Positions 4,383 through 62,131 of a stretch of DNA of 64,000 nt are shown one piece after another (the stretch's first letter is position 1; each line of letters begins with the position of its first letter). Below the pieces are notes generated by a model that made no database searches, was not told the DNA's origin, and saw nothing but the letters and a program-made list of their open reading frames with translations. The translations under genes and the position numbers were made by a program. Source of the stretch: an uncultured Phycisphaeraceae bacterium (GTDB taxonomy: Bacteria; Planctomycetota; Phycisphaerae; WQYP01); the NCBI GenBank assembly GCA_964610975.1, contig CAZSYN010000002.1, forward strand, positions 216,076 to 280,075, read 5' to 3'.

Positions 4383-5582
4383 TTATGCCGATTGATACGT
4401 CCATTTAGCATGGCGCGGCCGTGATGACTTGAGCTGCGCCAGCGCATGCAGCAACTGGTTTTTCACCATCTGCGAAGTCAGCAACTGCATGCAGATCGGA
4501 GCGCGATGTATGCAGCGATCAAAACACGGCCGGCACGGCATCGGCTCAACCATCACCACGGAATCACATTTTCCGCTGGGGCCAAACAATCGTGGGCATG
4601 CCGGTCCGTAAATGCCGACAACCCGGCTGCCGCATGCCGATGCCAGATGCAGAACGCCGCCATCAACGGCGAGGGTAATGTCCACCGCGTGCAGCAAACC
4701 TTTAAGGTCACTCAGTTTCGTCTGCCAGGGTATCAGCAGAATATGTTTGGGCACTCTTACCGTGGGGAGTTTTTCATGAGGCTCAAGAACCCATATGACC
4801 GCACCGATATATTCCGGCAGATCCTCAAGCACCTGCTCAAACTGACTCACGGGCCACTTGCGAATCGGATTCCCCGCGCCATTGCTGACGGCCAGTATCA
4901 ACCCATTGCGGTATCCCTGTTTTCGCAATACACCAAGCGCACGGCAGGTGCTGTGCATATCGGCGTTCATCACGGGAAGATCATCAGTTTTTTGGCCCGT
5001 TATTTTCTCTGCGGCGGCAACCGCGTCATGCCGCGTATGCCAGGGTTCTGATAAATGCGGCGGCCGGCCCAAATTCAAATCAAGCCAATATTTTCCGCCG
5101 GAAGCGCCGTAGGCCGCTTTAGCCCGCGCGGATAACAACGCCAACTGCATCAATTCGCGCGGATCATGTCTGATGCTGATGAGCAAATCCCACGAGTGCG
5201 TCCTGAGAGCGCGAAGCTGCTGTAAAAATACGCGCCATTCTTTTTTCCAGAAACGATATTTTCCTGTGTACTGTGTCCACGGCGGAACCAGCACGTGAAC
5301 TTGGTCGCACAATCCGGTATCAACAAACAGGTCATTCAGCCACGGTTTACCGATGAGTTCAATGGACGCTTTCGGCCAGCGTTTTCGCAAGCCTGCCAAA
5401 AGCGGCTGCGCCAATATCGCATCACCGATGCCCCACTGCTGAATCACGCCGATTTTCGGAGACAAATGGCCCGAAGACTCAAATGATTTCCACGCGCCGT
5501 GAGGTCTTTTCCCAAACCATGAGATCACATCGGCAATCTTGGTCATCATATGAATTTTGTCATCACGCCGAGACATGGCCAT
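4383..5582 (-). CDS. glycosyltransferase family 9 (heptosyltransferase-like)
   Basis: Has GIGDAILAQPLL near the N-terminus and LAVDGGVLHLASACGSRVVGIYGP near the C-terminus (GT9 RfaF/RfaC-type motifs). Probable start is MAMSRRDDK at 5582, which overlaps the CpsB stop as TGATG. Carries a Cys-rich C-terminal tail. Confidence 0.6.
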   Translation of the reverse strand: MAMSRRDDKIHMMTKIADVISWFGKRPHGAWKSFESSGHLSPKIGVIQQWGIGDAILAQPLLAGLRKRWPKASIELIGKPWLNDLFVDTGLCDQVHVLVPPWTQYTGKYRFWKKEWRVFLQQLRALRTHSWDLLISIRHDPRELMQLALLSARAKAAYGASGGKYWLDLNLGRPPHLSEPWHTRHDAVAAAEKITGQKTDDLPVMNADMHSTCRALGVLRKQGYRNGLILAVSNGAGNPIRKWPVSQFEQVLEDLPEYIGAVIWVLEPHEKLPTVRVPKHILLIPWQTKLSDLKGLLHAVDITLAVDGGVLHLASACGSRVVGIYGPACPRLFGPSGKCDSVVMVEPMPCRPCFDRCIHRAPICMQLLTSQMVKNQLLHALAQLKSSRPRHAKWTYQSA

Positions 5583-6468: not shown

Positions 6469-8874
6469 TCATTTTTGTGCGTACTGCCGGCTCTGCATTT
6501 TGGTCACAATTTTTCCTGTCGCCTGGCCTGATTCATTGCCGTATCCATAACCATAGCCATATGCGGCATGAGATCCCGTTGAGTTAACAATCAACCCCAC
6601 ATGACGGTTAACGGCCTGCAATTCATCAACATGATGGCGGAATCCGTTGCGCAATGTCTTTTTAAGCCGGCACACGCACAGGATGCGATTGACCTGTTCC
6701 GCCAGGATCAGCGCCGTTGTGGTGGCCGGATATGGCGGCGCATCAAGGACGGTAAAGCTGTAATGTTCGCGGGCATAATCAATCAATTGCTGCATGCCCG
6801 GCGATTCAATCAATTCAACTGGCGATGGCGGCGTGGGCCCGGCGCATATCAAATCAAATTCACGCCCATCCGGCAGACTCACCGTTCGTATTATCTGTTC
6901 AAGCGAAGCCTGGCTGTTCAGATATTCCGACAGGCCCGGGCTCACCGGTTGTTCAAAAATATCCGCCAGTGATTGTTTATGCATATCGCAATCAATGAGT
7001 AAAACGCGATCAACACGTTCAGAGCGGCACAGCGTGGCCGCAAGATTGACCGAAATTGTCGTTTTCCCTTCTCCCGGCATTGAGCTTGTCAGCATCACAA
7101 TCTGAGATTTTTTCCCGGCCATTGAGTGAAGCAGATTGGTCCTGAGCTGGCGGATTGATTCAAGAAACGGACTTTGCATTTTAAGATCAATCGTTTCGCG
7201 CGAAGCCCTGCGCAAACGCCGGCCACGGCCGGGAACAACGGCAAAAACTGGCTGCTCAAAACTATTTTTGATCTGCGTGACATCCGTATAGTAATTGGTC
7301 ATCGCCGTCTTCAGAATCAGCGCGGCAAAAGCGCTGATGGCGCCCAGCGCCACGGCAATCAGCCCGCTGTTGAGCGGTTTGGGAAAGTTCACTTTAAGCG
7401 GCAAAATGGCCTGCCCCACCACGTGCAGATCCGTTGTCGTGCTGGCCACGGCAATCTGCGTATTTTGCTGCTGCTTGAACAGGAACAGATAAAGTTCCTC
7501 ATACAGTTGCGTCGTGCGCATGTGCTCGGCCAGCACGCGAGCCGATATCGGCATCTTTTTGAATTTGGCCTGATATTCATCCACCACGCGGCTTAATTCA
7601 GCGCGATCACTTTGGGTGCGTTCATAGTAACGCTCAAGCGTTTCCTTAAGCTGGGCCTGCGTTTTATTTCGCACTTCAAGGCGGTCTTTCAGAGGCGGAT
7701 ATTCAGAAGAGAACCGCGATTCAAGCGCCGCGATTTCTTTGCTCTGGTCAATCAGATCGCCGGCCAGTTTCTGCAATACCGCGTCATCCATAAACGCATA
7801 CAGATACGCATCGGCATTGGGCTTGTTGATATTTTTCAGCAGGTTCTCCATCTCCGCCAGTTTGACATCCGCTTCTTTAAGCTTGACTTCACTTTCAACA
7901 AGCTGCGTGACCTGGGCCTCAACCTGCGGCTCAAGCGAGATCAGGCCCGATTCACTCTGATAACGCGCCAGGTTTTCCGATGTGCGCGTCAGGTTATTTT
8001 TCAGATCCGCAACCTGGCTGTTCACATATTCAAGAAGAGCCCGCGACGATTCGGTGGCCCATCCCTGTTTGATCCGGCCAAATTCGCTGATGATTCCCGT
8101 CACCACATTTCGGGCAACATACGGCGATTCGGCGGTATAGGATATTTTGATCACATTGCTGGTGCGATTGGCAATTTTGCCGCCTCCGCCGCTGACGTCC
8201 AGCGCTTTTGAAAAATCTTCCAGTAAAAGCGATGCCGGCGTTAATTTCAGCGTCATGTCCGTTCCCGCGGCCACGGGCGTATCCAGATGTTCTCCATTGA
8301 GAATAAACTGGCTCCCGCCGATTTGAACGGGTTTATTGAGTGCGCTTTGAACAACTTTGTCCGGTGATGTCACATCATAAATGGAAAATTTTCTGCCATT
8401 TTCAAACTGTATCCTGTAGGTCCTCACTCCCAGCAGTTCGCCTTCAACGGCCTGAACCCAAATTCCGTTGGCATAGGCGCTGACATCCCGGCTCAGCCAC
8501 TGATTCGCGCTGCGCGGCGTTGACGGAAGATACATGCCCGGCCCGGTAAGCTCGGCATTCAATCCCAGCTTGTTAATCACGGTGATCGCCAGATCACTGC
8601 TGCAAAGCAGATCCTTGTGCGATTCCACATTCTCGCCGCCGGCCCCCAGCAGCGGCATCAGCCCGCCCAGCGCGCTGGCCGAGACATCCGATTTTTCTTC
8701 AATATAAATCGCGCCCGAACTGGTGTATTTGGGCCTGAGAATCGCAAGAACAGACAAAACCAGCAGCATCACCGCCAGCCAGACAATCACGATCCGCCCC
8801 CAGTTCTGGCGGCAGATCATGACAATTTCCCGCAGGGAGATTTCTTTATTTTGTGCGTGATCCTGTTCCGGCAT
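6469..8874 (-). CDS. wzc: polysaccharide co-polymerase / BY-kinase (Wzc / GumC-EpsB fusion type)
   Basis: 801 aa. N-terminal TM, a Wzz-like periplasmic coiled-coil region and a second TM. Cytoplasmic Walker A (SSMPGEGKTTISVNLA), A' (LLIDCDMHKQS) and B (FTVLDAPP) motifs. C-terminal tyrosine cluster YGYGYGYG. Confidence 0.85.
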   Translation of the reverse strand: MPEQDHAQNKEISLREIVMICRQNWGRIVIVWLAVMLLVLSVLAILRPKYTSSGAIYIEEKSDVSASALGGLMPLLGAGGENVESHKDLLCSSDLAITVINKLGLNAELTGPGMYLPSTPRSANQWLSRDVSAYANGIWVQAVEGELLGVRTYRIQFENGRKFSIYDVTSPDKVVQSALNKPVQIGGSQFILNGEHLDTPVAAGTDMTLKLTPASLLLEDFSKALDVSGGGGKIANRTSNVIKISYTAESPYVARNVVTGIISEFGRIKQGWATESSRALLEYVNSQVADLKNNLTRTSENLARYQSESGLISLEPQVEAQVTQLVESEVKLKEADVKLAEMENLLKNINKPNADAYLYAFMDDAVLQKLAGDLIDQSKEIAALESRFSSEYPPLKDRLEVRNKTQAQLKETLERYYERTQSDRAELSRVVDEYQAKFKKMPISARVLAEHMRTTQLYEELYLFLFKQQQNTQIAVASTTTDLHVVGQAILPLKVNFPKPLNSGLIAVALGAISAFAALILKTAMTNYYTDVTQIKNSFEQPVFAVVPGRGRRLRRASRETIDLKMQSPFLESIRQLRTNLLHSMAGKKSQIVMLTSSMPGEGKTTISVNLAATLCRSERVDRVLLIDCDMHKQSLADIFEQPVSPGLSEYLNSQASLEQIIRTVSLPDGREFDLICAGPTPPSPVELIESPGMQQLIDYAREHYSFTVLDAPPYPATTTALILAEQVNRILCVCRLKKTLRNGFRHHVDELQAVNRHVGLIVNSTGSHAAYGYGYGYGNESGQATGKIVTKMQSRQYAQK

Positions 8875-19010: not shown

Positions 19011-19055
19011 AAAAAAAAGAAACAGGGACGGTTATCAACCGTCCCTGTTTTATTT
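19011..19055 (-). terminator. intrinsic terminator downstream of map (hairpin with U-tracts on both sides)
   Basis: aacagggacgg-ttatcaa-ccgtccctgtt is a perfect 11-bp stem. It is followed by a run of T on the minus strand (aaaaaaaag on plus) and by tttatttc on plus. Confidence 0.6.
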
Positions 19056-20882: not shown

Positions 20883-22363
20883 GCGGGCTGTGATCCGCGA
20901 ACCGGGCCGCCTTTGGTCTTTTTGAGTTTGGCTCCGTTACCGCCATCTTCAAGAAAACCACCGTAGTTACGCATCACAAGGTTTGCTTCAATACGGTTAA
21001 CAAGATCAAGCATCACGCTGATCACAATCAGCAGGCCCGTACCGCCCAAAAAGCTGCTGACAGTGAAGCTGACATCAAAAAACTTATAAACGACAGACGG
21101 GATCACGGCGATCACGCACAAGAATGCCGCGCCGACATACGTCATGCGGTTCATCACATTCTCAAGATACTCGGCCGTGCGCGGACCGGGACGCAAACCC
21201 GGAATAAAGCTGCCGTAATCACGAAGCTGATTGGCCATTTCCTTCGGCTGAAACTGAACGGTATTCCAGAAATAGCTGAAGAAGAAAATCATGCCGATAT
21301 ACATAAATTCGTAAAGGAACTCGCCGATATCAAAACCGCGGCCCAGGGAGATCGTAAACGTGTTGGGCCAGCGATCGACAATCATGCGGATACCCGCATG
21401 CGGGAAGAGCATCAGCGAACTGGCGAAAATGATCGGCATGACGCCAGCGTGGTTGACGCGCAGAGGCAGGTACTGCTTCTGGCCGCCGTAAACCTTGCGG
21501 CCACGCAGATGCTTGGCCTGCTGAATCGGAATGCGGCGCTGAGCCTGCGTAATCAGGATTGAGCCGGCCACGACAAACACAAAGCAGGCTGCCAACACCA
21601 GGACCACAAGCAGACCATACTTCGGCTGGCCGGAGTTCATCATGCGGCCGACATTCTGAAATGCCTCAACAAGATTGCCGCCGAGATGCCAGTCTTTGAA
21701 GAGAATATTAAAGAAATTGGTAAACGCGGATTGAGAGTAAACCTCATGGATTGCGTTGGGCAGGCGGCTGACGATACCGGCCGTGATGATCAGCGATACG
21801 CCGTTGCCGATGCCGTACTGGTCAATCTGCTCGCCAAGCCACATCAGGAACATACTGCCGGCAGTAAGAACCGTCAGGCCCATGACCCAGAACAAAAGCG
21901 GATGATCTTCGCTCATGAACGGATAAAGCAACTCATTGCGGCTTGAGGCCAGGGTCCACATCCACCATCCGCCCTGAATCAGGCAGATCAGCACGGTAAG
22001 GTAACGCGTCCACTCGTTGATTTTGCGAATGCCCGGCTCGCCTTCCTTTTTGAGTTTTTCAAGGCTCGGCACAACCGTGGCCAAAAGCTGCAAGATAATG
22101 GATGCGGAAATGTACGGCATAATGCCCAGGCCGAAAATACGCGACTGGGACAAATCACCGCCGGAGAAGACCGACATGTAATTGGCCAACGCGCCGAAGG
22201 CTGTGTTGGCGCTTTCCTGCGCCTGACGCAGAACGTTTTCGGCATTGACGCCAGGCAAGGGCAAGGCGTAACCGATGCGATACACCACCAGCATGCCGAG
22301 AGTAAAGAGCAGTTTGTTACGCAGTTCCGGAATACGAAACGTGTTCGTGAGCGTTTTAATCAC
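20876..22363 (-). CDS. secY: preprotein translocase subunit SecY
   Basis: MIKTLTNTFRIPELRNKLLFTLGMLVVYRIGYALPLPGVN...; 10 TM helices. 495 aa with a basic C-terminal tail. Confidence 0.9.
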   Translation of the reverse strand: MIKTLTNTFRIPELRNKLLFTLGMLVVYRIGYALPLPGVNAENVLRQAQESANTAFGALANYMSVFSGGDLSQSRIFGLGIMPYISASIILQLLATVVPSLEKLKKEGEPGIRKINEWTRYLTVLICLIQGGWWMWTLASSRNELLYPFMSEDHPLLFWVMGLTVLTAGSMFLMWLGEQIDQYGIGNGVSLIITAGIVSRLPNAIHEVYSQSAFTNFFNILFKDWHLGGNLVEAFQNVGRMMNSGQPKYGLLVVLVLAACFVFVVAGSILITQAQRRIPIQQAKHLRGRKVYGGQKQYLPLRVNHAGVMPIIFASSLMLFPHAGIRMIVDRWPNTFTISLGRGFDIGEFLYEFMYIGMIFFFSYFWNTVQFQPKEMANQLRDYGSFIPGLRPGPRTAEYLENVMNRMTYVGAAFLCVIAVIPSVVYKFFDVSFTVSSFLGGTGLLIVISVMLDLVNRIEANLVMRNYGGFLEDGGNGAKLKKTKGGPVRGSQPAA

Positions 22364-22600: not shown

Positions 22601-22655
22601 GGATAAAAACAAGCTATAAAGCGCAAAACCCTCGGCGAAGGCCGAGGGTTTTGTG
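22601..22655 (-). terminator. hairpin + U-rich tract downstream of rplO (putative intrinsic terminator / attenuator before secY)
   Basis: aaaaccctcggc-gaag-gccgagggtttt is a 12-bp stem. On the minus strand it is followed by gcgctttatagcttgtttttatcc. Confidence 0.45.
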
Positions 22656-22704
22656 TATTTCAACATGAGCGGACAGAAGCCCGTCGGCTTGCCGGCATCC
22701 GTGA

Positions 22705-23441: not shown

Positions 23442-23480
23442 TAAAAAAAGCCCCGGGGATAAAACCCCGGGGTCTTATTT
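23442..23480 (-). terminator. GC-rich hairpin with flanking A/T runs between rpsE and rplO (putative intrinsic terminator, bidirectional)
   Basis: gccccggggataaaaccccggggtc. On the minus strand it is followed by ctttttttaa, on plus by ttatttc. The rpsE-rplO spacer is 310 nt and there is no L30 gene. Confidence 0.5.
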
Positions 23481-30426: not shown

Positions 30427-30567
30427 GTCTTTCCTCTTGTTCCGTTGACTCACTCATTCCTGCATTGGCCTGAGCGGTTTTAACGTTTTTATCTTTTTAT
30501 CATCCTGAGTCCGCTTGCTGATCAACCGGACTCGCCAAGCCTTTTAAAGCTCGCACAAACCGTCATA

Positions 30568-33948: not shown

Positions 33949-34408
33949 AAAAAAGAGAATTACAATTGATCATGCAATTATTTCTGCATTGCATACACTC
34001 AAGGTTTTATCCACTGATCACTTTCTATATTTGTGCTCTCTATTCGGGCAGTAATTTCTTCACCCCCCTCTCGGGGTGAAGAACAGTTGTTTTCCACGGG
34101 TTCGCTGCGGCTCACCCGCGACTAGAATGCGCTGGTCTTTCGGGCCGGTAGGCATGCATGCTAAGTTCGTAAGATATCGGGGATGTGGGGTGTGATCAGA
34201 ATATTCAAAGACTGCATCCCAAAGTAGTGTGCTCGCGCCGCGCCAAAAAGTTCTGGCGGAACGTTGCCGGGATGCGGAAATTGTCACGCTCCTTCAGAGC
34301 TGCCGGTATTTGAGGTACGCTAAACCGCCGGATAAATCCGGCGGTTATAGATATGGCGTCCTTTCAGGACGCATCATCTTGCCCATGATCATCAGTTGCC
34401 CGCCATCA

Positions 34409-35219: not shown

Positions 35220-35530
35220 AGGGGAAATCATTACGAGTTCATAGCCTGGGGTGCGCTCACTGCCGGTCGCGCTACTCCTGGCTACTTTATGCCAACTCTT
35301 CACGCTGATCGGACTGATCATTTATCTATCAACCTGAGTTTCGGATAAGGATCAAAAAAATGTGTGCCCCCAAGCCCCGGGGTTTTAGTGCAAGTGCCAA
35401 AAAGAATTAACGGCTGACAGATTTACAAAGCTGCCCCGCGATGGCGTGGCGGCAGATCACGCGCTAAAACATTTTGACACATACTGGCTCTGTTGAAAAG
35501 ATTCAGCAAGCCCCATCCTTTTAGAGGATC

Positions 35531-35627
35531 GGGCACAAACAGCTATCCAGAAACGATTACATCCTTTGGGTGTTACTCGTTTTCTTTCACAGTTTGTGCC
35601 CCGCGCCATGAAGGCGACGGGGCTTGG
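35531..35627 (+). ncRNA. candidate structured RNA / repeat motif, copy 1 (gggcacaaac...gtttgtgcccc-stem-AUGAA-loop-ggggcttg)
   Basis: A 35-nt core gtttgtgccccgcgccatgaaggcgacggggcttg, with a distal complementary arm gggcacaaacag 60 nt upstream. A second copy at 53470-53610 keeps the same stem through three compensatory base-pair changes. Strand and function are unknown. Confidence 0.3.
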
Positions 35628-35935
35628 TTTCGGATTTTTCAACAAAGCAACACATACTATAGAGTATCTCTCGAAAGTCTTCCGCATATAGAACCAGCAA
35701 AACGGCCGAGATATGCCGTTTTTGGGACGGACTCGTTGCGGCCTTTCGGTAAAGATTTTTGAGAACCGCTATAACTCCGGGGTTTGTCCGTTATCGCCAA
35801 ATGTTGGCGTGCTCGCATTCCACCCCGGGGTTAAAACCACCGGGGCTTTCTTATCCTGAACTCTGGTTTTGTGGTTTGTACAGGCGCCGTTGTATGCATC
35901 TTATTGATATAAGAATCATGTGTTTGGCGAATGCA

Positions 35936-46823: not shown

Positions 46824-46857
46824 AAAAAAACGGGACGCATAGCGTCCCGTTTTTTGT
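46824..46857 (+). terminator. bidirectional intrinsic terminator
   Basis: aaaaaaacgggacgc-atag-gcgtcccgtttttt. Confidence 0.65.
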
Positions 46858-52227: not shown

Positions 52228-53412
52228 ATGCGTGTTTTGATCACGGGCCAAATTGGTCTTGATAAAAAAAGTTACATTGAAGCGACCGCGGCGCTTGCCC
52301 GTGCCAACGGCGAAGACGTCAAAGTTTTTCATATTGGCGATATGATGTATCGCGAAGCGCCGGATGTGCGTCCCGGGCGCATTTTGGATTTGCCTCTGGC
52401 AAGGCTCAATCAGTTGCGCAGATCGGTCATGCGTGATGTGCTGGCCGAGGCCGGCCGGCATCAACATATCATCGTCAACACGCATGCCACATTCCGCTGG
52501 CGTCACGGGCTCTTCAGCGCTTTTGATTTTGACCAGCTTGCGATGTTCAATGCTGATCTGTATGTCACGCTTGTGGACAATATTGAGACGGTTCACCAAC
52601 GCATGGTGCGCGATCACGATCTTGAGCATTCGCTTAAAGATTTGATGGTCTGGCGCGAAGAGGAAATCCTGGCGACGGAACTTTGCGCCAAAGCCCACAC
52701 GTTGGCGCGCACGCCGGCCGGAGGAGATTCGCGCAGTGAACTCCCGCCGGCGCCAAAATATTACGTTCTTTCGCGCGGACGTCACACGGCCACGACGGAA
52801 ACGCTTTTCCGATTGATTTTCCGCCCCAATATGCGGAAGGTTTATCCGTCATTCCCGATGTCACATGTGATGGATCTTCCCGATACGCTCGCGGAAATTA
52901 ATGAGTTTCGCTCGGCGATGGCCAAAAAATTCATTACATTTGATCCGGGCGATGTGGATGAAAAAGTGCTTGCGGATACGGCGCTGGCCGCCGCGCGCAA
53001 CGGCCAGCAGTTTATTGACGTTCCGCCATTGCCTGGCCAGCAGCCGCAGGGCAATTCGCCGCATGATCCGGGCTCAAACAAACTGCCGGTGCGGGAAGTC
53101 ATGGACATTGTCGGCGACATTGACGGGCAAATTTACGCGCGCGATTTTCTGCTGGTGCGCCAGTCAGACATGATTGTCAGCTATATTCCTGAACTGCCCA
53201 CCGGCAAACCGGGACTCTCAAGCGGCGTTGAGCGCGAGCTTCAGCACGCCCACGAGCACGCCAAAGATGTCTTTGTCATCTGGAAGCCGCGCAAAGATCC
53301 CAGTCCGTTTATCACGCAGACGGCCAACAAGGTTTTTCATTCCGTGGCCGAGGCACTGGCGTATTTTGATCAGGCCGGGTTCTGCGTTCCGTATAGTCTC
53401 TTCGGAACGTAA
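52228..53412 (+). CDS. hypothetical two-domain protein: N-terminal P-loop-kinase-like fold, C-terminal nucleoside 2-deoxyribosyltransferase-like (Rcl/LOG-type) fold
   Basis: N-terminus MRVLITGQIGLDKKS... is glycine-loop-like. The C-terminus DFLLVRQSDMIVSYIPE...SSGVERELQHAHEHAKDVFVIW resembles the D-x-x-SD...G-[TS]-x-x-E-[LI]-G pattern of deoxyribosyltransferase-like N-glycosidases. The assignment is tentative. Confidence 0.4.
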   Translation: MRVLITGQIGLDKKSYIEATAALARANGEDVKVFHIGDMMYREAPDVRPGRILDLPLARLNQLRRSVMRDVLAEAGRHQHIIVNTHATFRWRHGLFSAFDFDQLAMFNADLYVTLVDNIETVHQRMVRDHDLEHSLKDLMVWREEEILATELCAKAHTLARTPAGGDSRSELPPAPKYYVLSRGRHTATTETLFRLIFRPNMRKVYPSFPMSHVMDLPDTLAEINEFRSAMAKKFITFDPGDVDEKVLADTALAAARNGQQFIDVPPLPGQQPQGNSPHDPGSNKLPVREVMDIVGDIDGQIYARDFLLVRQSDMIVSYIPELPTGKPGLSSGVERELQHAHEHAKDVFVIWKPRKDPSPFITQTANKVFHSVAEALAYFDQAGFCVPYSLFGT

Positions 53413-53469
53413 TGGGCTAAATCCGGGATCATGAGTGTTGATTTTCAAGCCCCGCTCCATCATGGGGCT

Positions 53470-53610
53470 GGGCACAACAGATGTGCGAGCGATCAATGTC
53501 TGTTGAACGCTTAATCATGTGCGAACGAATTACCCCCGATTCGTTCCAGTCATGAGCAATTGCCAACGATGATGAGTTTGTGCCCCATCCCATGAAGGGA
53601 ATGGGGCTTG
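53470..53610 (+). ncRNA. candidate structured RNA / repeat motif, copy 2
   Basis: Core gtttgtgccccatcccatgaagggaatggggcttg. The stem ccccatccc/gggaatgggg versus copy 1 ccccgcgcc/ggcgacgggg keeps pairing and a bulged A through compensatory changes. A distal arm gggcacaac lies ~100 nt upstream. A perfect 8-bp hairpin (gaacgaat...attcgttc) sits in between. Confidence 0.3.
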
Positions 53611-53901
53611 CTCAGACTCATGACCAGAATGGCCGGCAGGTCTTATATTATCATCACAGAATGAGTGGCATTGCGGATGAGATGAGCCAAAGAAAAAGCG
53701 GCCAAAATATTGCTCAATTCAGCCATTTTTGGTTGGCATTATCTCAGAAACAGTGTAAATAATACTTGTAATTTCTGCGAGCAACTCGTTTAACAACCTG
53801 CCGTCAATGTATGTAGTGGGTATCAGGGGAGAAGGCCAAAAGAAGGACTGAGCGCGACCAACAAAGCCGGCGCAGGTACTCTTTTGGTAATTGAGTGGGA
53901 T

Positions 53902-54801
53902 TATATGCGTAAGCGGATTTTTTCGTTGTTGGCATTCGGGGCACTGGCGGCAATCTCAACATCAGCAGGCGCGTCCACAATACGAACGGATAAGGCGGAT
54001 AGCCTGTATACGACGCTGGCCACGCTGCCGGAATATTCAGGCGTCGGCAAAGTTATTCATTCAACAGCAATTGGTTCAGGGACGCTCATCTCGTCGCAAT
54101 GGGTGCTCACAGCAGCGCACATGGTGAAGGATAAATCCGCGCTGCAATTTGTACTTGGCGGAACCACATATACCGCCGATTATTCTACGTACTATTCCGG
54201 ATATGACACCAGCAATTATTATGGCGATCTGGCGCTTGTTCATATCAGTTCCGCCATCTCCGGCGTTACCTACGCAACCTTATATTCCGGCACAACCAGC
54301 GACCTTGTAAGCAATCACCAGACAGCGACGTATGTGGGTTACGGTTATAACGGCACCGGCACATCCGGATTTACCACGAATACTTACGGTACAAAACGAG
54401 CTTTTCAAAATAAAATTGATGAGATCGCTTCAGATTACATCAGTACGTGGCCCGCTAACGATCTTTTGAGTGATTTTGATTCTCCCGGCGGCGCCAAAAC
54501 GCACATTGGTGATGGAGAACCGCTATCACTTGAAGGAAATATCGCGCCGGGCGACAGCGGCGGCGGCGTGTTCGTCAATATTGGCGGCACAACGTACCTG
54601 GCCGGCGTTATTTCTCTGCTGGGCTCAACAGATGGCACTAAAAATGCCAACTATGGTGATTTTTCAATGTCCGTCAGCGTGACGGATTTTTCTTCATGGA
54701 TTTACTCCACCATGTCCGCTTATGAGGCAACTATTCCCGAGCCGGCCAGCATGTCCCTGCTGCTCTCCGGCGGACTTTGGCTGCTTAAACGGCGCAAATA
54801 A
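53902..54801 (+). CDS. secreted trypsin-like (S1 family) serine protease with PEP-CTERM anchor
   Basis: Signal peptide MRKRIFSLLAFGALAAISTSAGAS. WVLTAAHMV (His site). GDSGGGVF (Ser site). C-terminal IPEPASMSLLLSGGLWLLKRRK. Confidence 0.75.
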   Translation, partial: YMRKRIFSLLAFGALAAISTSAGASTIRTDKADSLYTTLATLPEYSGVGKVIHSTAIGSGTLISSQWVLTAAHMVKDKSALQFVLGGTTYTADYSTYYSGYDTSNYYGDLALVHISSAISGVTYATLYSGTTSDLVSNHQTATYVGYGYNGTGTSGFTTNTYGTKRAFQNKIDEIASDYISTWPANDLLSDFDSPGGAKTHIGDGEPLSLEGNIAPGDSGGGVFVNIGGTTYLAGVISLLGSTDGTKNANYGDFSMSVSVTDFSSWIYSTMSAYEATIPEPASMSLLLSGGLWLLKRRK

Positions 54802-54825
54802 AAAAACGAAATCTGAATTGATCAC

Positions 54826-54860
54826 AAAAACGGGAAGAATATCTCTTCCCGTTTTTTATT
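54826..54860 (+). terminator. intrinsic terminator after the protease gene
   Basis: acgggaagaatatctcttcccgttttttatt. Confidence 0.65.
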
Positions 54861-55166
54861 GACACGAATTAACCTTTGGCAGTAACGTAAGGACATCTCT
54901 TTGAAGGTGCCGGATGATTGCCCCGAATGTTCATATCGCCTGATCACGCCATCAACTCACGAATGTGAGCTGATGGGCCGCTGATCATTGTGACCGCCGC
55001 ACAGGCACAGTTTGTGCGGAAGGTTTTGTTTTTAATTTTAACATTTAAGCTCATGCGTTTGTGCGCATGTATTGTGACGTGAGGAAATTTATGGCCACGC
55101 CCATTGTCGTTTCTGGTTTGTGCGAATTTGTGTTTCGTATCATATCTTCATCAATAAACCAGGATA

Positions 55167-55529
55167 TTGAACATGTCAGATCATTACCGCCATCGCGGAC
55201 CAAGCGAGGGCTTTATTTGCCGCCACTGTGGCCGCGGCGTTAATCCGTGCCAGTATGGCTCTCAGCATCGTAATCACTGTCCGTATTGCCTCTGGAGTCT
55301 TCACGTGGATGATGCGCCGGGCGACCGAGCCTCGCACTGCAAAGGCAGCATGCAGCCGCTGGCCGTGTGGGTACGCCAAGACGGAGAATGGGCCATTATT
55401 CATCGTTGCGCTTCGTGCGGATGTCTGAAAAGCAACCGCATCGCCGGCGATGACGACCCGTGGGCGCTCATGGCGCTGGCCGCGCAAGCCATCAGCCGCC
55501 CCCCGTTCCCCATCACGATGCCACAGTAA
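55167..55529 (+). CDS. RNHCP-domain protein (Cys-rich, function unknown)
   Basis: FICRHCGRGV...QHRNHCPYCLWSLHVDD...HRCASCGC: the literal RNHCP motif plus three Cys pairs. Confidence 0.6.
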   Translation: MNMSDHYRHRGPSEGFICRHCGRGVNPCQYGSQHRNHCPYCLWSLHVDDAPGDRASHCKGSMQPLAVWVRQDGEWAIIHRCASCGCLKSNRIAGDDDPWALMALAAQAISRPPFPITMPQ

Positions 55530-55534
55530 CCAAC

Positions 55535-55575
55535 AAAAAACCCCGAGGCCAAAACCTCGGGGTTTTTATTTGTTC
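55535..55575. terminator. bidirectional intrinsic terminator between the RNHCP gene and folC
   Basis: aaaaaaccccgagg-ccaaaa-cctcggggttttt. Confidence 0.65.
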
Positions 55576-55591
55576 ATTTTGTATGCTGCTA

Positions 55592-57094
55592 TCAATTCTG
55601 CTTGGCGGCCTGGCGTTCTGTGTAAAGCTGCTTGGCTTCGCCGATGAGATAAAAGCTGCCGGTGATGGTCAGCAGATCTTCGCGGCCGATGGCGCGCTCA
55701 GCGATCTCAATGGCTTCCGGCAGCGTTTGTGCCACCTGGGCCATTTTGCCATAACGCTCCGTATACAGATGCGAAAGCTCAAGCGGGTCGGCCGATTTGG
55801 GATTGTTGCGCGAACGCGTAAAGATCACCTTGTCGGCGCCAAGCGAAACCTGCTCAAGCATGCCATCAATGTCTTTATCACAGTTGCAGCCAAAAATCAC
55901 CACCATGGAGTCATACGGAATATGCTGGCCGATGCCGCGGAAAAGCGCCTGAACGCTTGCGGCATTGTGCGCGCCGTCAATGATCACACGCGGGTCCGTG
56001 GCGATGACCTCAAGGCGGCCGGAAAGCTTGAGTTTCTGCAAACCATCAAGCGCTTTGGCCTCTTCTATCTTAAAGCCGCGGCGCTTGAGCACATCAAGCA
56101 TGGCCAAAGCCAGACCGCAGTTAATCGCCTGATGCTCACCCATGAGCGGCACAGTCAGGTGCTCAAAACGGCTGATGTCAGTCGTCAGGCACACACGCAT
56201 GTGCGGGCCGATCGGGCGAGTACACTCAAAACGATACGAAAATTCAATATCCGTGCCGACAACCTGAAGTGTGGTTTTGGCTTCGGCCGCTTTGCGGCGG
56301 AAGACCGAAATCACTTCCGGGTCCTGAATGCAGGTGAGCGCCGGAACATCCTTCTTGAAGATGCCGGCCTTTTCTTCGGCAATCTTGGCGATGGTGTTGC
56401 CCAGCACAGCCATGTGATCTTTGCTGATGCTGGTAATGGCCGTAACTTCCGGCGTGATGACATTGGTAGAATCAAGCCGGCCGCCCATGCCTGTCTCAAT
56501 GACGGCGATATCCACGTTCTGATCGGCAAAGAAACAGAACGACATGGCCGTAAAGATCTCAAAGAAAGTCGGGCGGTCTGCACCCATCTTTTTGAGCACA
56601 GGTTCAATTTTTTTGACGTAATCAACCAGATCCTGCTGGCTGATCATCTCGCCGTTGAGCTTAATGCGCTCGCGGATATCAAGCAGATGGGGACTGGTAT
56701 AAAGACCGGTCTTAAGGCCGCCATGCTGCAACATTGTCGCAATCATGTGGCAGGTTGATCCTTTGCCCTTTGTGCCTGCGACATGAACGGTCTTAAACTT
56801 GAGCTGCGGATTGCCCAAATGCTTGAGCAGCGTCCGCATGCGATCAAGATTAAACGTAGACGTGTTATAACGCACCACGCGCATCCGCTCGTAGTCGGTG
56901 TGGCTCATCAGGAAACTGACAGCCTTTGCATAAGGGGAGGGTGGCTCAACTACCGGCTTGAGGGGCGGCGCCTTAACGCTCACCACAACCGGCGTTTTGA
57001 GTTTGGGGGCAGGTCTTGATCCTCGAGCTTTCGAGGACTTTGACTTGCCAATACGCCCCGGGGCCCGATTCTTGGACTTCAAGATGGTCGCCAT
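55592..57094 (-). CDS. folC: bifunctional folylpolyglutamate synthase / dihydrofolate synthase
   Basis: Mur-ligase fold: VAGTKGKGSTCHMIATMLQHGG, the Mg site, and the C-terminal domain. It has a ~60-aa basic Lys/Pro-rich N-terminal extension. Confidence 0.8.
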   Translation of the reverse strand: MATILKSKNRAPGRIGKSKSSKARGSRPAPKLKTPVVVSVKAPPLKPVVEPPSPYAKAVSFLMSHTDYERMRVVRYNTSTFNLDRMRTLLKHLGNPQLKFKTVHVAGTKGKGSTCHMIATMLQHGGLKTGLYTSPHLLDIRERIKLNGEMISQQDLVDYVKKIEPVLKKMGADRPTFFEIFTAMSFCFFADQNVDIAVIETGMGGRLDSTNVITPEVTAITSISKDHMAVLGNTIAKIAEEKAGIFKKDVPALTCIQDPEVISVFRRKAAEAKTTLQVVGTDIEFSYRFECTRPIGPHMRVCLTTDISRFEHLTVPLMGEHQAINCGLALAMLDVLKRRGFKIEEAKALDGLQKLKLSGRLEVIATDPRVIIDGAHNAASVQALFRGIGQHIPYDSMVVIFGCNCDKDIDGMLEQVSLGADKVIFTRSRNNPKSADPLELSHLYTERYGKMAQVAQTLPEAIEIAERAIGREDLLTITGSFYLIGEAKQLYTERQAAKQN

Positions 57095-57406
57095 ATCTCA
57101 TCAGAATACCAAATTCCGATCTTGCTCTGCAAGCGTGCCAAAATGACAGAAATGCAGAATTGCGACCATAAGTATATAGTTTACAAGTTATTACAGAAAT
57201 ATCGCGATTTATTTAGTTTTTCTTAAAGTTTTGGGACTACAACATCTTGTGGTGCAAAGAGGCGATAGACGCATTCTCCTTTGCGTATAATTGACGCATT
57301 TTTCAGCAAACAGGCACTCATTTTTGCCCACAAGATAGCAACTCTATGTTATAGGACGATGCAATAGGCGGCAATAGGCGGGAAATTGATGAGTTCAGCC
57401 AATGGG

Positions 57407-58255
57407 TTAGCGAACCGGCAGCGCAAAAACGTCGGCCACGATGTTGGCCATGCGCTGCGCGCCAAGATTTGATAAATGCAGTCCGTCAACAGTGGTGGCC
57501 TTGCCAAGAAAGACGAAAGACATGCGGTGCTTGGGAATCAGAGGGATATTGTATTTGAGCGCCAACTTGCGCTGAGCATTGCCGATGCCCGCATCCCAGG
57601 GATAAAGCGGTAACTCAAACATAACTACAGGATGCCCACTGAGTTGCGAAATCAACTGATCAAGATCACGGTAAAACAAGTCAGGATTCTGGCCATCAAG
57701 CAGATCGTTGCCGCCAATCTCAAGGAGCACCCAGTCATTGTTCTTCGGAATGCGCTGAACCTGCGGAAGCGCTGTGCGAAGCGTAGCCCCGGCAACAGCA
57801 TAATTATTCACAATGATGCGGCGTTGTTTTTCAAGCAGATCCGGCCAACGCACGTCGCCGATGCCGGCCGTCAGAGAATCGCCAACGATATACACTTGAT
57901 CCGGAGCGGCCGCTAACCGCGGAGTGCGCCACCAGTAGGCTTCCGCGGCCAAAAAAGTAACGGTCATCATCAGCACAATAATGTGAGCAATCTTCTGAAT
58001 GCGGATTATTCTGTCTGCCGGAAGATGCGTCATGATGAGCCAAAATACGATGACAAGTATAGCAACGATCAGGCGCGGCCGATCAATCGGCGTACCGGAA
58101 AGCACAATCAAGGTTAGCGCCAGGAACACAATAATATTGGTAACGATACGAAAACGCTTTGGCCAAAGCATGCGCACAAGCACAGCCAGAATAAGCAAAG
58201 CACCGCCACAATAAAGACTTAATCCGCTGGCGAAAAGCATCAAGAACGGGTTCAT
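57407..58255 (-). CDS. SGNH/GDSL hydrolase-family protein with N-terminal membrane anchor
   Basis: Four N-terminal TM helices, then VYIVGDSLTAGIGD (GDSL block I) and the ...GGNDLL... block. Confidence 0.6.
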   Translation of the reverse strand: MNPFLMLFASGLSLYCGGALLILAVLVRMLWPKRFRIVTNIIVFLALTLIVLSGTPIDRPRLIVAILVIVFWLIMTHLPADRIIRIQKIAHIIVLMMTVTFLAAEAYWWRTPRLAAAPDQVYIVGDSLTAGIGDVRWPDLLEKQRRIIVNNYAVAGATLRTALPQVQRIPKNNDWVLLEIGGNDLLDGQNPDLFYRDLDQLISQLSGHPVVMFELPLYPWDAGIGNAQRKLALKYNIPLIPKHRMSFVFLGKATTVDGLHLSNLGAQRMANIVADVFALPVR

Positions 58256-58267
58256 GCGGGCATCCTG

Positions 58268-61261
58268 TTAATTATCACGCATACTGCGCGTCAATTGAGT
58301 AAGAACGGCCGCGGCATCCTGGGCTGTGGCATACTTGCCAACCCTGATGCCGGCACGCAGTTCATCAATGGCCACAGGAAGGTCTTTTAACTTCTCGGTC
58401 ATGGCGAGAAATTCATCAGGCAACACTCCGCCGTGATCCTTTGTGCGAAAATCAAGCAGCCAGCGGCCCTTGCGCAACACCATCTGCATTCCGCTGCCGT
58501 TGGCAATAGTGGCGATATCACCATCAATTTGCCACTGCATGGCAGAAAGAGATATCACATCACGCGCAATGGTGCTGGTAAATGCACTTTGTGATTCATC
58601 TTTGCCAAAACGTTTTTCAGATTCACGATTGAGCAACTCAATGGCAACAATCAATCTCGCTATCACATCCGCCGCTTTCTGCTCAGCGACATCACCAGCA
58701 GTGACGTATAGGGCGGCCTTAACCGCGTCAACATCTTTTTTGCGGGCATCCTCGTATATCATCGCCAAAGAACCGACCGGCGTTTTGGGATCTGGCGCAA
58801 CAGAAGGAGACGATGCGGGTATGTTCTTCTTTGCAGGAATCGTGGACGGTTGAGGCGGAGCAACATTTGCGGGTTGCGCAGCGGGCGTATTGCGCATGGC
58901 CGCAGCAGGGGCGGCTTTGCCAGTGGCCAGCGAAACGGGCGCACGCGCAGGGATTGTGGCCGGGACAGGCGTATTGGGCGTTACTTTCAGGTTGTCAAAA
59001 GAGACCCACACACGCGGCCGCGACCAGAGTTCAAGCTTGTCAACTTCTTTCCACTGCACGGATGACCAGCATTGCAGATTATCATTACCGCCGCGATCAG
59101 GACCCTCCGCGCTGATAACCGGACGCGGCGCGCCGAGCATCGGCATCACGCGGCCATTTTTTAACTTGAGGACAAAATAATACTCCACGTTCTCGCGATA
59201 AGGGCACTGCGTCCACAAGCTGACGTTATTGGTGGCGCCAAATGACGTGCTTAACCGCAGGTCTACGTCGCCGATGCGCTGTTTTTCACGGGTGCGCTCT
59301 ACTTCACCGATCAGTTGCCCTTCTCCGCCATCAACGCCGACGCGGATGCGGGGACTGTTCAGGTTTACTTCATATGAAATTTGCGACCAGTTATCCGTAT
59401 TGTTATACGAACTGTTGCCGCGATTGCCGCGGCTGAAATTATCGTTGTTGCGGTTGCGATTTTTGGCATCCTGCGTGGCCGGCGGAATTTTAGGCGCACT
59501 GGCCTCAACAAGCACGCAGAAAGTACCGGAACCATTGCTCATATACCGCTCCGGCGGAACACCGCGAAGCGGATCACCCTGTGGATCCCACCAGCATAGC
59601 GCGCCCATATCGCTGCGCGAAATGGCCAGCACGCGAACGGTCACATCGCCGGCGGTCTTTTCCCACTCAGGCAGACCGGGTTTGTTGGTCATGAATGTTT
59701 TTTGCGCCTTACTTTCCCACGCCAGTGCGCGGTCGGCCACCCACCGGGCGGCATCAGGGCCGTATGTGGCCCAATTCCATCGTGAAATTTCACTGAGAGA
59801 CTGCATCACGCGTGCCTCGGGCATCGTGGCGCCGAAAGGCTCAAGCACCATGATCAGCACAAGCGACAGGTCATCCACGCGCACCGTGTCGCTGATCATC
59901 AGCAGAACATCCTGCTGGGCCAACTGCGTTTTGAGCTTGATGTCGCCGCGAAATTCCGCATTCGTGCGATACGGTTCACCAAGATACGCCCTGCCGTTAT
60001 CAAGTGTGGCGTTAATATTAAGCGCCAACTGGCGATCCGCGTTTGTGGTCAGTTGCGAAGCCTGCCCCTGCGTGCGCCAGTATCCCTGCATCCAGTTGAT
60101 GGGCAGCAGATCGTCGTCATTATCACGGCCGCCCTGCAAATATGGCAGTATATTGTACATATGAGAATTATTTTGTGTGATCTGCACATTGCGCGCCGCA
60201 TAGCCAAGCGCTTCGCGCGCGGGGCCAAACTGAATGGTGCGGACAAAGCGATGCAGATCAACGGCGGGCATGCGGTAAAGCGTGAATTTGCTGCTTTCTG
60301 ATTGCTCCGCACTGCCGATTGCGCGTAATTTATTGGCGGTAAATTCTTCCGTTATAAAAGCATAACCCGCAACATGCAGAGGACTGGCGGCATCCGCCGG
60401 CTGCATGGCCGGCTCAACAAGAATATTTGACGGCAATACAGTTGCCGGCGCCGCCGGCTGAAATGGCGGCGGCGGAATAACCACTTTGCTGGTGTTGCCG
60501 ATCCGGTTGACAACAAAACTTGTGATAATGCCGGCGGCAATAATCAGCACCAACACTGCGGCGGCGCGCCACAACAGGGGAAAACTGGACTGATGTCCCC
60601 AGGACATCAACAATCGCCGCAATGACGGCCTAAATTGCCTTGCCATCTCAGGAGCGGACAATGCCGATGCCACGGCGGATTCCGGCACAGGCAAGCCGGT
60701 TTCGGACAAAATCGCCTGCATCATAGCGTCACGGCCGAGGGCAAGGCCTTTTTTCTCAAGAAGACGATTGAGTTTTTCACACGCACGTGAGGAACGTTTT
60801 TCAAAAGTAGCCGGCGAAATAGCCAGAGCCGAGGCGGCATCAGCAGGCGAGTGTTTTTCAAAAAACGCACGCAACATGATTTCGCGATCACGTTCTCCCA
60901 GCCGCAGCAATGCGCCATCAATCTGCGAACGAAAATCGTTTTTGCATTCCGGCACGGCCGCGGCCGCCGGACGGGGCAGGGATTGCGCATTGCGCCGCTC
61001 TTTTGCCTGATGTTTCAGATGCCGCTGGCAGGCATGGCAAGTGACCTCATGCAGCCAACCGGCAACCGAAATGCGGTCAAGCAGCCGCGAGGCGCGATCC
61101 GCCAGAAGTAGAAAACTGGCGTGCGCAATTTTTTCAGCATCCTGCGGATCAACCTGCCGGCGCGCAGCCTGGTAAATCATGGCCGCGTGTCGCTGAATCA
61201 GTTGTTTTATCGCGGCGGTATCACCTTCAAGATACTGCTGCAAGAGTTGCTGGTCGGTCAT
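58268..61261 (-). CDS. ECF sigma-70 factor fused to a transmembrane segment and a ~740-aa extracytoplasmic domain
   Basis: N-terminus LQQYLEGDTAAIKQLIQRHAAMIYQAARRQV (region 2) and ILRAFFEKHSPADAASALAISPATFEKRSSRACEKLNRLL (region 4). A TM helix follows (AAAVLVLIIAAGIITSFVV). The large C-terminal region has no recognised domain; it contains a Pro/Ala-rich linker. Start chosen at MTDQQLL (61261); the track ORF extends to 61360. Confidence 0.65.
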   Translation of the reverse strand: MTDQQLLQQYLEGDTAAIKQLIQRHAAMIYQAARRQVDPQDAEKIAHASFLLLADRASRLLDRISVAGWLHEVTCHACQRHLKHQAKERRNAQSLPRPAAAAVPECKNDFRSQIDGALLRLGERDREIMLRAFFEKHSPADAASALAISPATFEKRSSRACEKLNRLLEKKGLALGRDAMMQAILSETGLPVPESAVASALSAPEMARQFRPSLRRLLMSWGHQSSFPLLWRAAAVLVLIIAAGIITSFVVNRIGNTSKVVIPPPPFQPAAPATVLPSNILVEPAMQPADAASPLHVAGYAFITEEFTANKLRAIGSAEQSESSKFTLYRMPAVDLHRFVRTIQFGPAREALGYAARNVQITQNNSHMYNILPYLQGGRDNDDDLLPINWMQGYWRTQGQASQLTTNADRQLALNINATLDNGRAYLGEPYRTNAEFRGDIKLKTQLAQQDVLLMISDTVRVDDLSLVLIMVLEPFGATMPEARVMQSLSEISRWNWATYGPDAARWVADRALAWESKAQKTFMTNKPGLPEWEKTAGDVTVRVLAISRSDMGALCWWDPQGDPLRGVPPERYMSNGSGTFCVLVEASAPKIPPATQDAKNRNRNNDNFSRGNRGNSSYNNTDNWSQISYEVNLNSPRIRVGVDGGEGQLIGEVERTREKQRIGDVDLRLSTSFGATNNVSLWTQCPYRENVEYYFVLKLKNGRVMPMLGAPRPVISAEGPDRGGNDNLQCWSSVQWKEVDKLELWSRPRVWVSFDNLKVTPNTPVPATIPARAPVSLATGKAAPAAAMRNTPAAQPANVAPPQPSTIPAKKNIPASSPSVAPDPKTPVGSLAMIYEDARKKDVDAVKAALYVTAGDVAEQKAADVIARLIVAIELLNRESEKRFGKDESQSAFTSTIARDVISLSAMQWQIDGDIATIANGSGMQMVLRKGRWLLDFRTKDHGGVLPDEFLAMTEKLKDLPVAIDELRAGIRVGKYATAQDAAAVLTQLTRSMRDN

Positions 61262-61461
61262 GATGACGGTCTGCCTTTCTGCACTCCGGCCATAATCACG
61301 TGGTGACATCCACAACATCCGCCGATGCACGCACGCAACACATATAGGATATAACGCCACTGAGGCTTATGTATTGACAAGACACGTGGCAGATTTGTAA
61401 ATTTCGCGCCGCTATGAACAGGATAACGCGGCCTATGGCAGACGTGCAAAAAAGTAGAGAA

Positions 61462-61920
61462 TCAATCTGAATTGGGCACAAGAGTCAGCACCCACTGGCC
61501 GGTGCTATCGCCGCCGGCCAGATCCTCCTGATTAACCGTCAGCATGCGCGTGGTGGCAAGAGAACGCGCATTAAATGTATCAACGCCATTTTCGACGATG
61601 CGCTCTTTGCACTCAAAGCTGATTTTACCGGTAAAACGATCCGCATCTGCTTGCTTAAACATCCCGGAGACCGTCACTTGCAGAGCGCCATACTGAATTT
61701 GCGAATAAAAAGGAATCCCCGGAATAAGCCCCACATGCATGGCTGTGACAGGCTCCTTTTCCGCGGTTGCCGGAGCAGTGGTTGCGGCCGCAGTTGCCGG
61801 CCGCCAGACGATATGCAGGACGTAATCCGGCTTGGCATCATGATCGCCGGCGGCATACACCGTCAGCGCGGCAATCCCGATGAGCAAAATTCCCAGTACC
61901 GGCATAAAGCGAAAATACAT
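61462..61920 (-). CDS. hypothetical secreted protein
   Basis: Signal/anchor MYFRFMPVLGILLIGIAALTVYA. About 150 aa. No recognised motif. Confidence 0.4.
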   Translation of the reverse strand: MYFRFMPVLGILLIGIAALTVYAAGDHDAKPDYVLHIVWRPATAAATTAPATAEKEPVTAMHVGLIPGIPFYSQIQYGALQVTVSGMFKQADADRFTGKISFECKERIVENGVDTFNARSLATTRMLTVNQEDLAGGDSTGQWVLTLVPNSD

Positions 61921-62131
61921 GACATGCTCCGAATATGATCCTGTTATCTTTAAATTGACAGGCATAATCACTTTACGTTAGTTGCGATGAATCACAATAG
62001 GCCCGCCAAAAACAATTTCAGAAGTTATAATGCGTCAGCAAGTGCCATAAGTTTGGGGCCATGCTACAATTCAGCAAGTGGATATGCGAAAATCACCTCA
62101 TCTCGGAATGCGGATGACAGAGGTCTTTTGT

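Follow-up and report, generated by a model that had tools for sequence, protein, structure and literature searches.

A Dispersed Intergenic Hairpin Motif in an Uncultured Phycisphaeraceae Bacterium, Probably a Lineage-Specific Family of Short Palindromic Repeats

The Hairpin Motif and Its Copies in the Window

The window, by which we mean the whole 64-kb stretch of DNA that was analyzed, contains four copies of a short hairpin motif (Table 1). They are arranged as two inverted doublets, A (35507-35626) and B (53446-53610), with the GTTTGT heads facing inward in both, so that each reads ...ACAAAC-spacer-GTTTGT.... The doublets are intergenic: A lies in the gap that follows an isochorismatase gene, and B follows a gene encoding an AAA_17 protein. 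All four copies conform to the formula GTTTGT-GCCCC-(variable inner stem, 5-nt loop)-GGGGC-TTG. The unit measures about 34 bp (33-35 nt). A GTTTGT head leads into a GC-rich hairpin with 9-10 bp in the stem and 5 nt in the loop, and a CTTG tail follows; folding energies lie between -13 and -22 kcal/mol. Within a species the outer stem half (GCCCC/GGGGC) is invariant, and the inner half is variable but stays paired. Variants of the head (GTTGT, CATTGT, and GATCGT) are found across the family, and the tail reads either CTTG or CTTA.

The two plus-strand copies, A_right (core GTTTGTGCCCCGCGCCATGAAGGCGACGGGGCTTG) and B_right (core GTTTGTGCCCCATCCCATGAAGGGAATGGGGCTTG), share a block of 11 nt on the 5' side and one of 8 nt on the 3' side, an ATGAA loop and a bulged A, the last being present only in these two of the window copies. 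Their stems differ at three pairs and all three differences are compensatory (G-C to A-T, C-G to T-A, and G-C to C-G). The cores fold at -21.4 kcal/mol (z = -4.1) for A_right and -18.7 kcal/mol (z = -3.4) for B_right. An earlier, sequence-only reading had singled out these same two cores, and its description of their common flanks, AUGAA loop, shared bulged A and pairing-preserving differences at three positions per side agrees with ours, with the cores themselves placed one base too far to the right. It took the motif to be present twice; the inverted copies on the minus strand bring the number to four. It further proposed that distal arms 60-100 nt away enclose a larger domain. Such arms exist (35531-35540 and 53470-53478), at 51 and 97 nt, and each is the head of a complete copy, so that the larger domain is simply a pair of inverted copies.

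The flank pattern did not occur in any of 100 shuffles of the window, and each of the four copies reaches 45-53 bits (E of ~1e-8 to 1e-9) with a covariance model derived from them. A scan of the window with this model gave nothing convincing beyond the four, the next best match reaching 18 bits at 30536-30560. This match and those at 34057-34088 and 21001-21029 are marginal and were not taken as members. The sequence at 30536-30560 (GTTTGTGCGAGCTTTAAAAGGCTTG on the minus strand; 14-18 bits) lies between two ribosomal-protein cluster genes and combines the head and tail of the motif with a short, weak stem; it is either a decayed copy or a product of chance. A perfect 15-bp GC-rich hairpin (TGGCTTGCCGCGCGTGCCCGGCGCGCGGCAAGCCA) at 3115-3149, where the minus-strand ORFs 1879-3150 and 3087-4367 adjoin or overlap, is unrelated in sequence to the GTTTGT motif.

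Table 1. Motif copies, spacers and associated repeats of doublets A and B (window coordinates).
Feature	Position	Strand	Remarks
A_left, inverted copy	35507..35540	-	GTTTGTGCCCGATCCTCTAAAAGGATGGGGCTTG on minus strand; 48 bits
Doublet A spacer	35541..35591		51 nt; own small hairpin GAAACGA...TCGTTTC
A_right	35592..35626	+	GTTTGT head, 10-bp stem, bulged A, ATGAA loop, CTTG tail; 52 bits
Element A outer inverted repeat, left arm	35487..35499		GCTCTGTTGAAAA; pairs with 35636-35648; 92% complementary
Element A outer inverted repeat, right arm	35636..35648		TTTTCAACAAAGC
9-bp direct repeat, left	35477..35485	+	ACACATACT; one base off outer inverted repeat; putative target-site duplication
9-bp direct repeat, right	35650..35658	+	ACACATACT; one base off outer inverted repeat
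Larger nested inverted-repeat region enclosing A	35331..35868		z = -7.2; CCCCGGGG palindromes
Possible degenerate fifth copy	35361..35386	+	TGTGTGCCCCCAAGCCCCGGGGTTTT; found by eye; missed by both covariance models
B_left, inverted copy	53446..53478	-	34 nt past AAA_17 stop; 45 bits
Doublet B spacer	53479..53575		97 nt; internal 12-nt direct repeat, 36 nt apart
B_right	53576..53610	+	stem GCCCCATCCC; 53 bits
Element B outer inverted repeat, left arm	53429..53436		TCATGAGT; pairs with 53616-53623
Element B outer inverted repeat, right arm	53616..53623		ACTCATGA

Anatomy of the Doublets

The inverted symmetry of elements A and B does not end with the motif but extends outward past it for ~13-20 nt. 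The outer arms of the two elements are dissimilar except for a TGTTGA hexamer, which is seen in three of the four. Either element can be folded in its entirety as one long hairpin or as a four-way junction (z from -4.2 to -6.9). When A is reversed and aligned to B, the reverse complement of A_right resembles B_left and that of A_left resembles B_right, the latter two having an ATCC inner stem and a GCTTGCT tail in common. This pairing of arms is a better match than the one compared in the sequence-only reading. Since the minus strand of A thus matches the plus strand of B arm for arm, the doublets are homologous as whole units, each with two different arms. The spacer of doublet B contains, in addition to its direct repeat, a hairpin (GAACGAAT...ATTCGTTC); compared by eye, the spacers of A and B have no more in common than one small hairpin, GAA(A)CGA...TCG(T)TTC, and show no clear homology. 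Including one from a relative (L195, described below), three dimers are known, and all have heads that face inward, arms with unlike stems, and spacers of variable length (51 nt in A, 97 nt in B, and 55 nt in L195).

Covariation in the Stem

Variation in the stem was analyzed in an alignment of seven copies, from two of which the bulged A was deleted (in the alignment and the model only) because this keeps the columns in register. In this alignment 91% of cells are paired, compared with 34-57% once the partner has been shifted by 1-3 columns. Two-sided changes were found at six of the ten stem pairs (13 cells) and one-sided changes at none, counts that are inflated by kinship among the copies and that come from copies picked for forming hairpins. 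The changes run from one Watson-Crick pair to another, without G-U intermediates, and the hairpin is therefore kept on both DNA strands. Pairing on both strands is the pattern of palindromic repeat DNA and is unusual for an RNA under selection on one strand. Only two wobble pairs were found, one in B_left (T-G on the plus, mRNA-sense strand) and one in arm 1 of the L195 doublet. In both, the G-U form falls on the sense strand of the upstream gene, a faint sign that the RNA may fold, two cases having a chance probability of 0.25.

The sequence-only reading held that covariation between the two cores argues for selection on structure and against simple duplication. Further copies with compensatory changes have indeed been found, in the window and in relatives, so that the observation withstands the refuting condition which that reading had set on additional copies. 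The conclusion about selection on RNA structure does not follow, given the pairing on both strands and the want of one-sided changes, and it is countered by single copies in both orientations, by presence and absence at orthologous sites, and by the 9-bp direct repeat around element A. Compensatory changes between two hairpins are insufficient to call a structured RNA, because palindromic repeat DNA gives the same signature.

Copies in the Same Genome, in Relatives and in Sequence Collections

Homologs of neighboring proteins place the organism in Phycisphaerae (Planctomycetota). The ~20 kb of the source genome that adjoin the window (about 10 kb per side) contain one further copy (L199, 14741-14774), giving five copies in the ~84 kb examined. 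It is located between the convergent genes thrS and that of a glycosyl hydrolase of family 35, and its stem is identical to that of B_right, although the GTTTGT head is missing. Relatives with 87-88% protein identity contributed four more copies, in 15 kb of sequence. Two of these are lone hairpins followed by ACAAAC, placed directly after the stop codon of the AAA_17 gene (L112, 2830-2863, stem CCCCGGGGC; L113, 1396-1429, stem CTCCACCGC); their stems are quite unlike each other, yet paired. The other two form the third doublet, which lies 3' of a gene for a Cys/Met PLP-enzyme in L195. Its arm 1 occupies 8665-8698, and its arm 2 (8754-8784; stem CTCCACCCC, near that of L113) is truncated by the end of the contig. 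Among these close relatives, stems vary from species to species, with the GTTTGT head retained.

Beyond this circle the motif was not recovered. Both covariance models gave zero matches in 958 kb of sequence from other Phycisphaerae, made up of 80 loci at which the AAA_17 protein is at most 70% identical, and no conserved hairpin with ACAAAC was found past the stop codon in these same loci. The pattern GTTTGTGCCC-N15-19-GGGGCTTG gave at least 52 single matches in public genome contigs, in unrelated taxa; among the matches listed none has an inverted partner, and most fold poorly and were taken as chance. Zero matches were obtained in a metagenome scan with a two-arm, 24-base pattern, and 57 scattered matches in a scan of viral contigs were judged to be chance. 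One viral contig (L067, IMGVR_UViG_3300009694_000671, 5263-5358) stands alone among the scanned sequences in matching the loose pattern twice in tandem, with both matches on one strand and 62 nt apart; these may belong to an unrelated tandem or CRISPR-like repeat. The motif family is dispersed and restricted to one narrow clade of Phycisphaerae.

Gene Context and Presence at Comparable Sites

All nine copies are intergenic, and at four of the six loci a stop codon lies within 40 nt. The L112 copy and arm 1 of L195 go further and provide the TAA stop codon itself, by way of TAAG. Lone copies point either way with respect to the upstream gene. Past the AAA_17 stop codon, the hairpin with ACAAAC recurs at a distance of 0-37 nt in three species (those of the window, L112, and L113).

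At two of three comparable sites, the presence of the element differs between species of ~88% protein identity. In the window, the isochorismatase gene is followed by an 858-nt gap with doublet A; in L195 the gap is 170 nt long and has a canonical terminator and no A. After the Cys/Met PLP-enzyme gene it is L195 that has a doublet, and the window has a 47-nt gap without an element. After AAA_17, arm 1 is found in all three species, with the spacer and arm 2 in the window organism only.

Further features were seen in the neighborhood of these sites. The gene that follows isochorismatase encodes a 220-aa protein without a Pfam match in the window and NTP_transf_5 in L195. A gene for a trypsin-like protease beside AAA_17 (window 53884-54801) is shared by the window and L113 but missing from L112, where an RNHCP gene comes directly after AAA_17. 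Upstream of the RNHCP-domain gene of the window, at 55010-55123, are three GTTTGTGC octamers, of which the whole window has nine against 3.1 expected. A 19-nt sequence in the same leader (atggccacgcccattgtcg; window 55091-55159, L112 3238-3256) is identical in the relative of 87% identity, in a leader that is otherwise unalignable, and could start a small leader ORF (MATPIV...) or be a regulatory element. Between the window and the Logan contig from SRR9590235 (L001) there is a net 4-nt indel within 53412-62078, the proteins being identical, which represents strain-level variation.

The Direct Repeat Around Element A

Element A is bounded on both sides by the perfect 9-bp direct repeat listed in Table 1, whose two occurrences in the 64-kb window are precisely these. 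A 9-nt repeat anywhere in the flanks arises in ~1% of shuffles, and one at both boundaries would be expected by chance at ~1e-5 by our own estimate. Judged from its sequence, element A has the look of a discrete inserted unit, 164 bp long, that duplicated 9 bp of its target site. A flanking direct repeat was also sought around B, the L199 copy and the larger nested repeat, and was absent from all three; the terminal repeat of element A recurs neither elsewhere in the window nor in 206 loci.

The larger region that encloses A has its arms at 35331-35349/35850-35868 and 35372-35386/35834-35848, and may be a second repeat element that received the insertion of A. In four samples, independent short-read assemblies all end at ~35827, which is 109 nt past the isochorismatase stop codon, and one more short-read contig ends near 35154. 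Shared breaks of this kind near A fit with repeated or hairpin-rich DNA. Strain variants with an empty A site were sought in the short-read contigs, none of which spans the site, all of them breaking at ~35827 or ~35154. An empty site reading ...TTTTGACACATACTATAGAG... in another strain would identify A as an insertion with a 9-bp duplication, and an insertion sequence whose ends match the GTTTGT hairpin or the GCTYTGTTGAAAA terminus, with 9-bp target-site duplications, would make the repeat a miniature inverted-repeat element (MITE).

A Family of Palindromic Repeats and Its Alternatives

In a genome that has ordinary terminators, what is the role of a hairpin that so often follows genes? Textbook bidirectional terminators, each with a perfect GC stem of 9-16 bp between an A tract and a T tract, were seen at 19019-19051, 22621-22656, 23450-23473, 46825-46855, 54826-54856, and 55536-55567, so this planctomycete uses canonical terminators. 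Since these exist, the motif was ruled out as the default terminator of the organism. Terminator scans of the window did not call the motif hairpins; depending on the strand, the hairpin is followed by CTTG... or by ACAAAC, and by a U tract on neither. With no U tract after the stem and the T-rich GTTTGT 5' of it, the motif does not have the layout of a canonical intrinsic terminator, whichever way it is read.

The motif is best explained, and in our view probably so, as a lineage-specific intergenic family of short palindromic repeats that resembles REP dimers, BIMEs or MITEs and is probably mobile. The family would spread or turn over as non-autonomous mobile DNA, and its hairpin would be maintained at the level of DNA, perhaps by a transposase or nuclease that recognizes the folded single strand. 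Alternatively, repair within the palindrome could make its halves match. Upkeep at the DNA level, as proposed, would explain the perfect Watson-Crick pairing on both strands. No transposase of the Y1/RAYT or DDE type was found in the ~84 kb examined, and no Y1_Tnp domain among the genes of the window and the flanking 20 kb. Transposition of the IS200/IS605 HUH type leaves no target-site duplication, and the putative 9-bp duplication at A would count against a RAYT/HUH mechanism; B and the L199 copy have no such repeat. A rough extrapolation suggests one copy per 10-17 kb genome-wide. REPs of E. coli stabilize or attenuate transcripts. Many copies of the present family lie at or just past stop codons and are thus probably included in mRNA 3' ends, where by analogy they may stabilize or attenuate transcripts, which we regard as a side effect.

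The strongest competitor makes this supposed side effect the function. The motif would be a cis-acting RNA in mRNA 3' ends that stabilizes the message, blocks 3' exonucleases, or stops or insulates transcription without a U tract. The recurrence of hairpin and ACAAAC after AAA_17 in three species, with stems that are entirely unlike and always paired, speaks for such an RNA and against the repeat family, and could reflect a conserved function at that site. The strong compensatory variation, the sense-strand orientation of both wobbles and the stable folding of elements A and B point the same way. However, G-U pairs are nearly absent and the hairpin forms on both strands; lone copies stand in both orientations, and the doublets, being inverted repeats, read alike on both strands. 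Presence of the element differs between close relatives at two of the three sites, a 9-bp direct repeat flanks A, and the element is missing after AAA_17 in the 80 more distant relatives. The organism already uses canonical terminators. Rfam, which the sequence-only reading had named as a check, gave no match for the whole window at the gathering threshold; with E up to 1, nothing meaningful was obtained around A and B, the one hit being a 10.5-bit tmRNA fragment (gathering score 47). We consider a functional RNA unlikely, and the REP-like half of the earlier proposal (structured RNA or REP-like element) is the one supported, by a motif that is dispersed, intergenic, present as inverted dimers and singles, and confined to one lineage.

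The same blocks could be read as DNA. The inverted arrangement of conserved blocks that face each other across a spacer, together with the enrichment of GTTTGTGC in the window, would suit paired binding sites for a host protein (a regulator, nucleoid protein or recombinase), with GGGCACAAAC...GTTTGTGCCC as half-sites and the hairpins incidental. We hold this to be highly improbable, as the spacing between half-sites ranges over 51-97 nt, single copies exist, and the variable inner stem stays paired, which a duplex binding site does not need. Nor do known sites of this kind fit when compared by eye. In a sigma-54 promoter reading (GGGCAC...GC), the spacing from GG to GC in the -24-like block is 2 nt off in both doublets, and neither a Xer/dif site nor the integron attC layout matches. 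In attC, paired inner boxes lie between AAC and GTT; here, paired inner boxes are absent, the R boxes are poor, and the context lacks cassettes and an integrase. DNA uptake sequence pairs were also rejected on reading the sequence, the hairpin forming within each arm and not between arms. That unrelated GC-rich terminator hairpins resemble each other by chance deserves next to no credence. The flank pattern did give scattered single matches in unrelated taxa among the public-genome matches listed, so that in very large databases the flanks by themselves turn up by chance, but four copies in 64 kb stand against none in the shuffles, each with E of ~1e-8, the copies form ordered inverted doublets, and the source genome and its close relatives yield more of them, with none in 958 kb of other Phycisphaerae.

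A bolder idea, which we rate as distinctly unlikely, is that the hairpin with GTTTGT/ACAAAC is an undescribed module of this clade, either a third superfamily of REP tags or an RNA 3'-end element that dispenses with the U tract. As a third tag it might be served by an unrecognized, possibly domesticated, nuclease or transposase; as an RNA it might be kept after particular genes such as AAA_17, stabilizing or insulating their transcripts. Returning to the repeat family, it would account for some long hairpin-rich intergenic gaps and some breaks in short-read assemblies in Phycisphaerae, and could be used as a strain-typing or lineage marker.

Comparison With Known Repeat Families

REPs were described as palindromes of 20-40 bp tagged with GTAG or CGTC, with stems of 5-13 bp, that are found as singles and also, in HH or TT orientation, as inverted dimers whose units lie 20-100 bp apart; in the TT form, with the tags inside, spacers vary, heterodimers have unlike stems, REP ends can provide stop codons, and dimers can sit inside larger palindromes (Di Nocera et al., 2013; PMC3733652). 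The present family is similar in nearly all of these respects. It consists of imperfect intergenic palindromes of 33-35 bp with a short tag at the end, a stem of 9-10 bp and a 5-nt loop, and it comes as single copies and as inverted dimers with spacers of 51-97 nt. The dimers are TT heterodimers with variable spacers, some lie inside a larger palindrome, and copies abut or provide stop codons. Stems are species-specific and the tag is common. Unlike in REPs, the head is GTTTGT, and neither end is GTAG, CTAC, CGTC, or GACG. REP superfamilies run to tens to thousands of copies per genome; the present family stands at five copies in the ~84 kb examined of this genome and four in 15 kb of close relatives. 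REPINs (Bertels and Rainey, 2011; PMC3116915) are grouped here with REPs. A REPIN-RAYT system has a cognate RAYT (Y1/HUH transposase) gene, typically with the repeats on its flanks; no RAYT gene was seen in the 84 kb examined, and doublet A has a flanking direct repeat of 9 bp, which is unexpected from HUH/RAYT transposition. If a cognate enzyme were found, GTTTGT would join GTAG and CGTC among the REP tags, from a clade of uncultured planctomycetes, a modest addition.

MITEs are recognized by terminal inverted repeats and flanking direct repeats, the target-site duplication (review, PMC10969869). Element A has both an inverted and a direct repeat, and B has an inverted repeat without a direct one. 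In common with Correia/NEMIS, ERIC, and RUP elements, element A is short (164 bp), non-coding, intergenic and bounded by inverted repeats, with the 9-bp direct repeat outside them; it folds whole into a long hairpin and is apparently nested in another palindromic element. Unlike MITEs, the copies have no common termini or spacer, the conserved part being a hairpin just inside the ends. Lone hairpins occur, the target-site duplication is seen at only one examined copy, and no parent insertion sequence was identified. A repeat family from 2011 (PMC3049150), named in the same review, is reportedly dispersed, with a terminator-like GC hairpin core that lies after genes. As far as its title and an abbreviation list allow a comparison, it is like the present motif in being a dispersed GC hairpin after genes, and the motif would differ from it in having no U tract and in carrying the T-rich GTTTGT 5' of the stem. 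Since the tag differs from those of REPs and the copies lack the common termini and spacer of MITEs, membership of neither named family is claimed; by analogy, the family appears to work like a REP dimer or a MITE.
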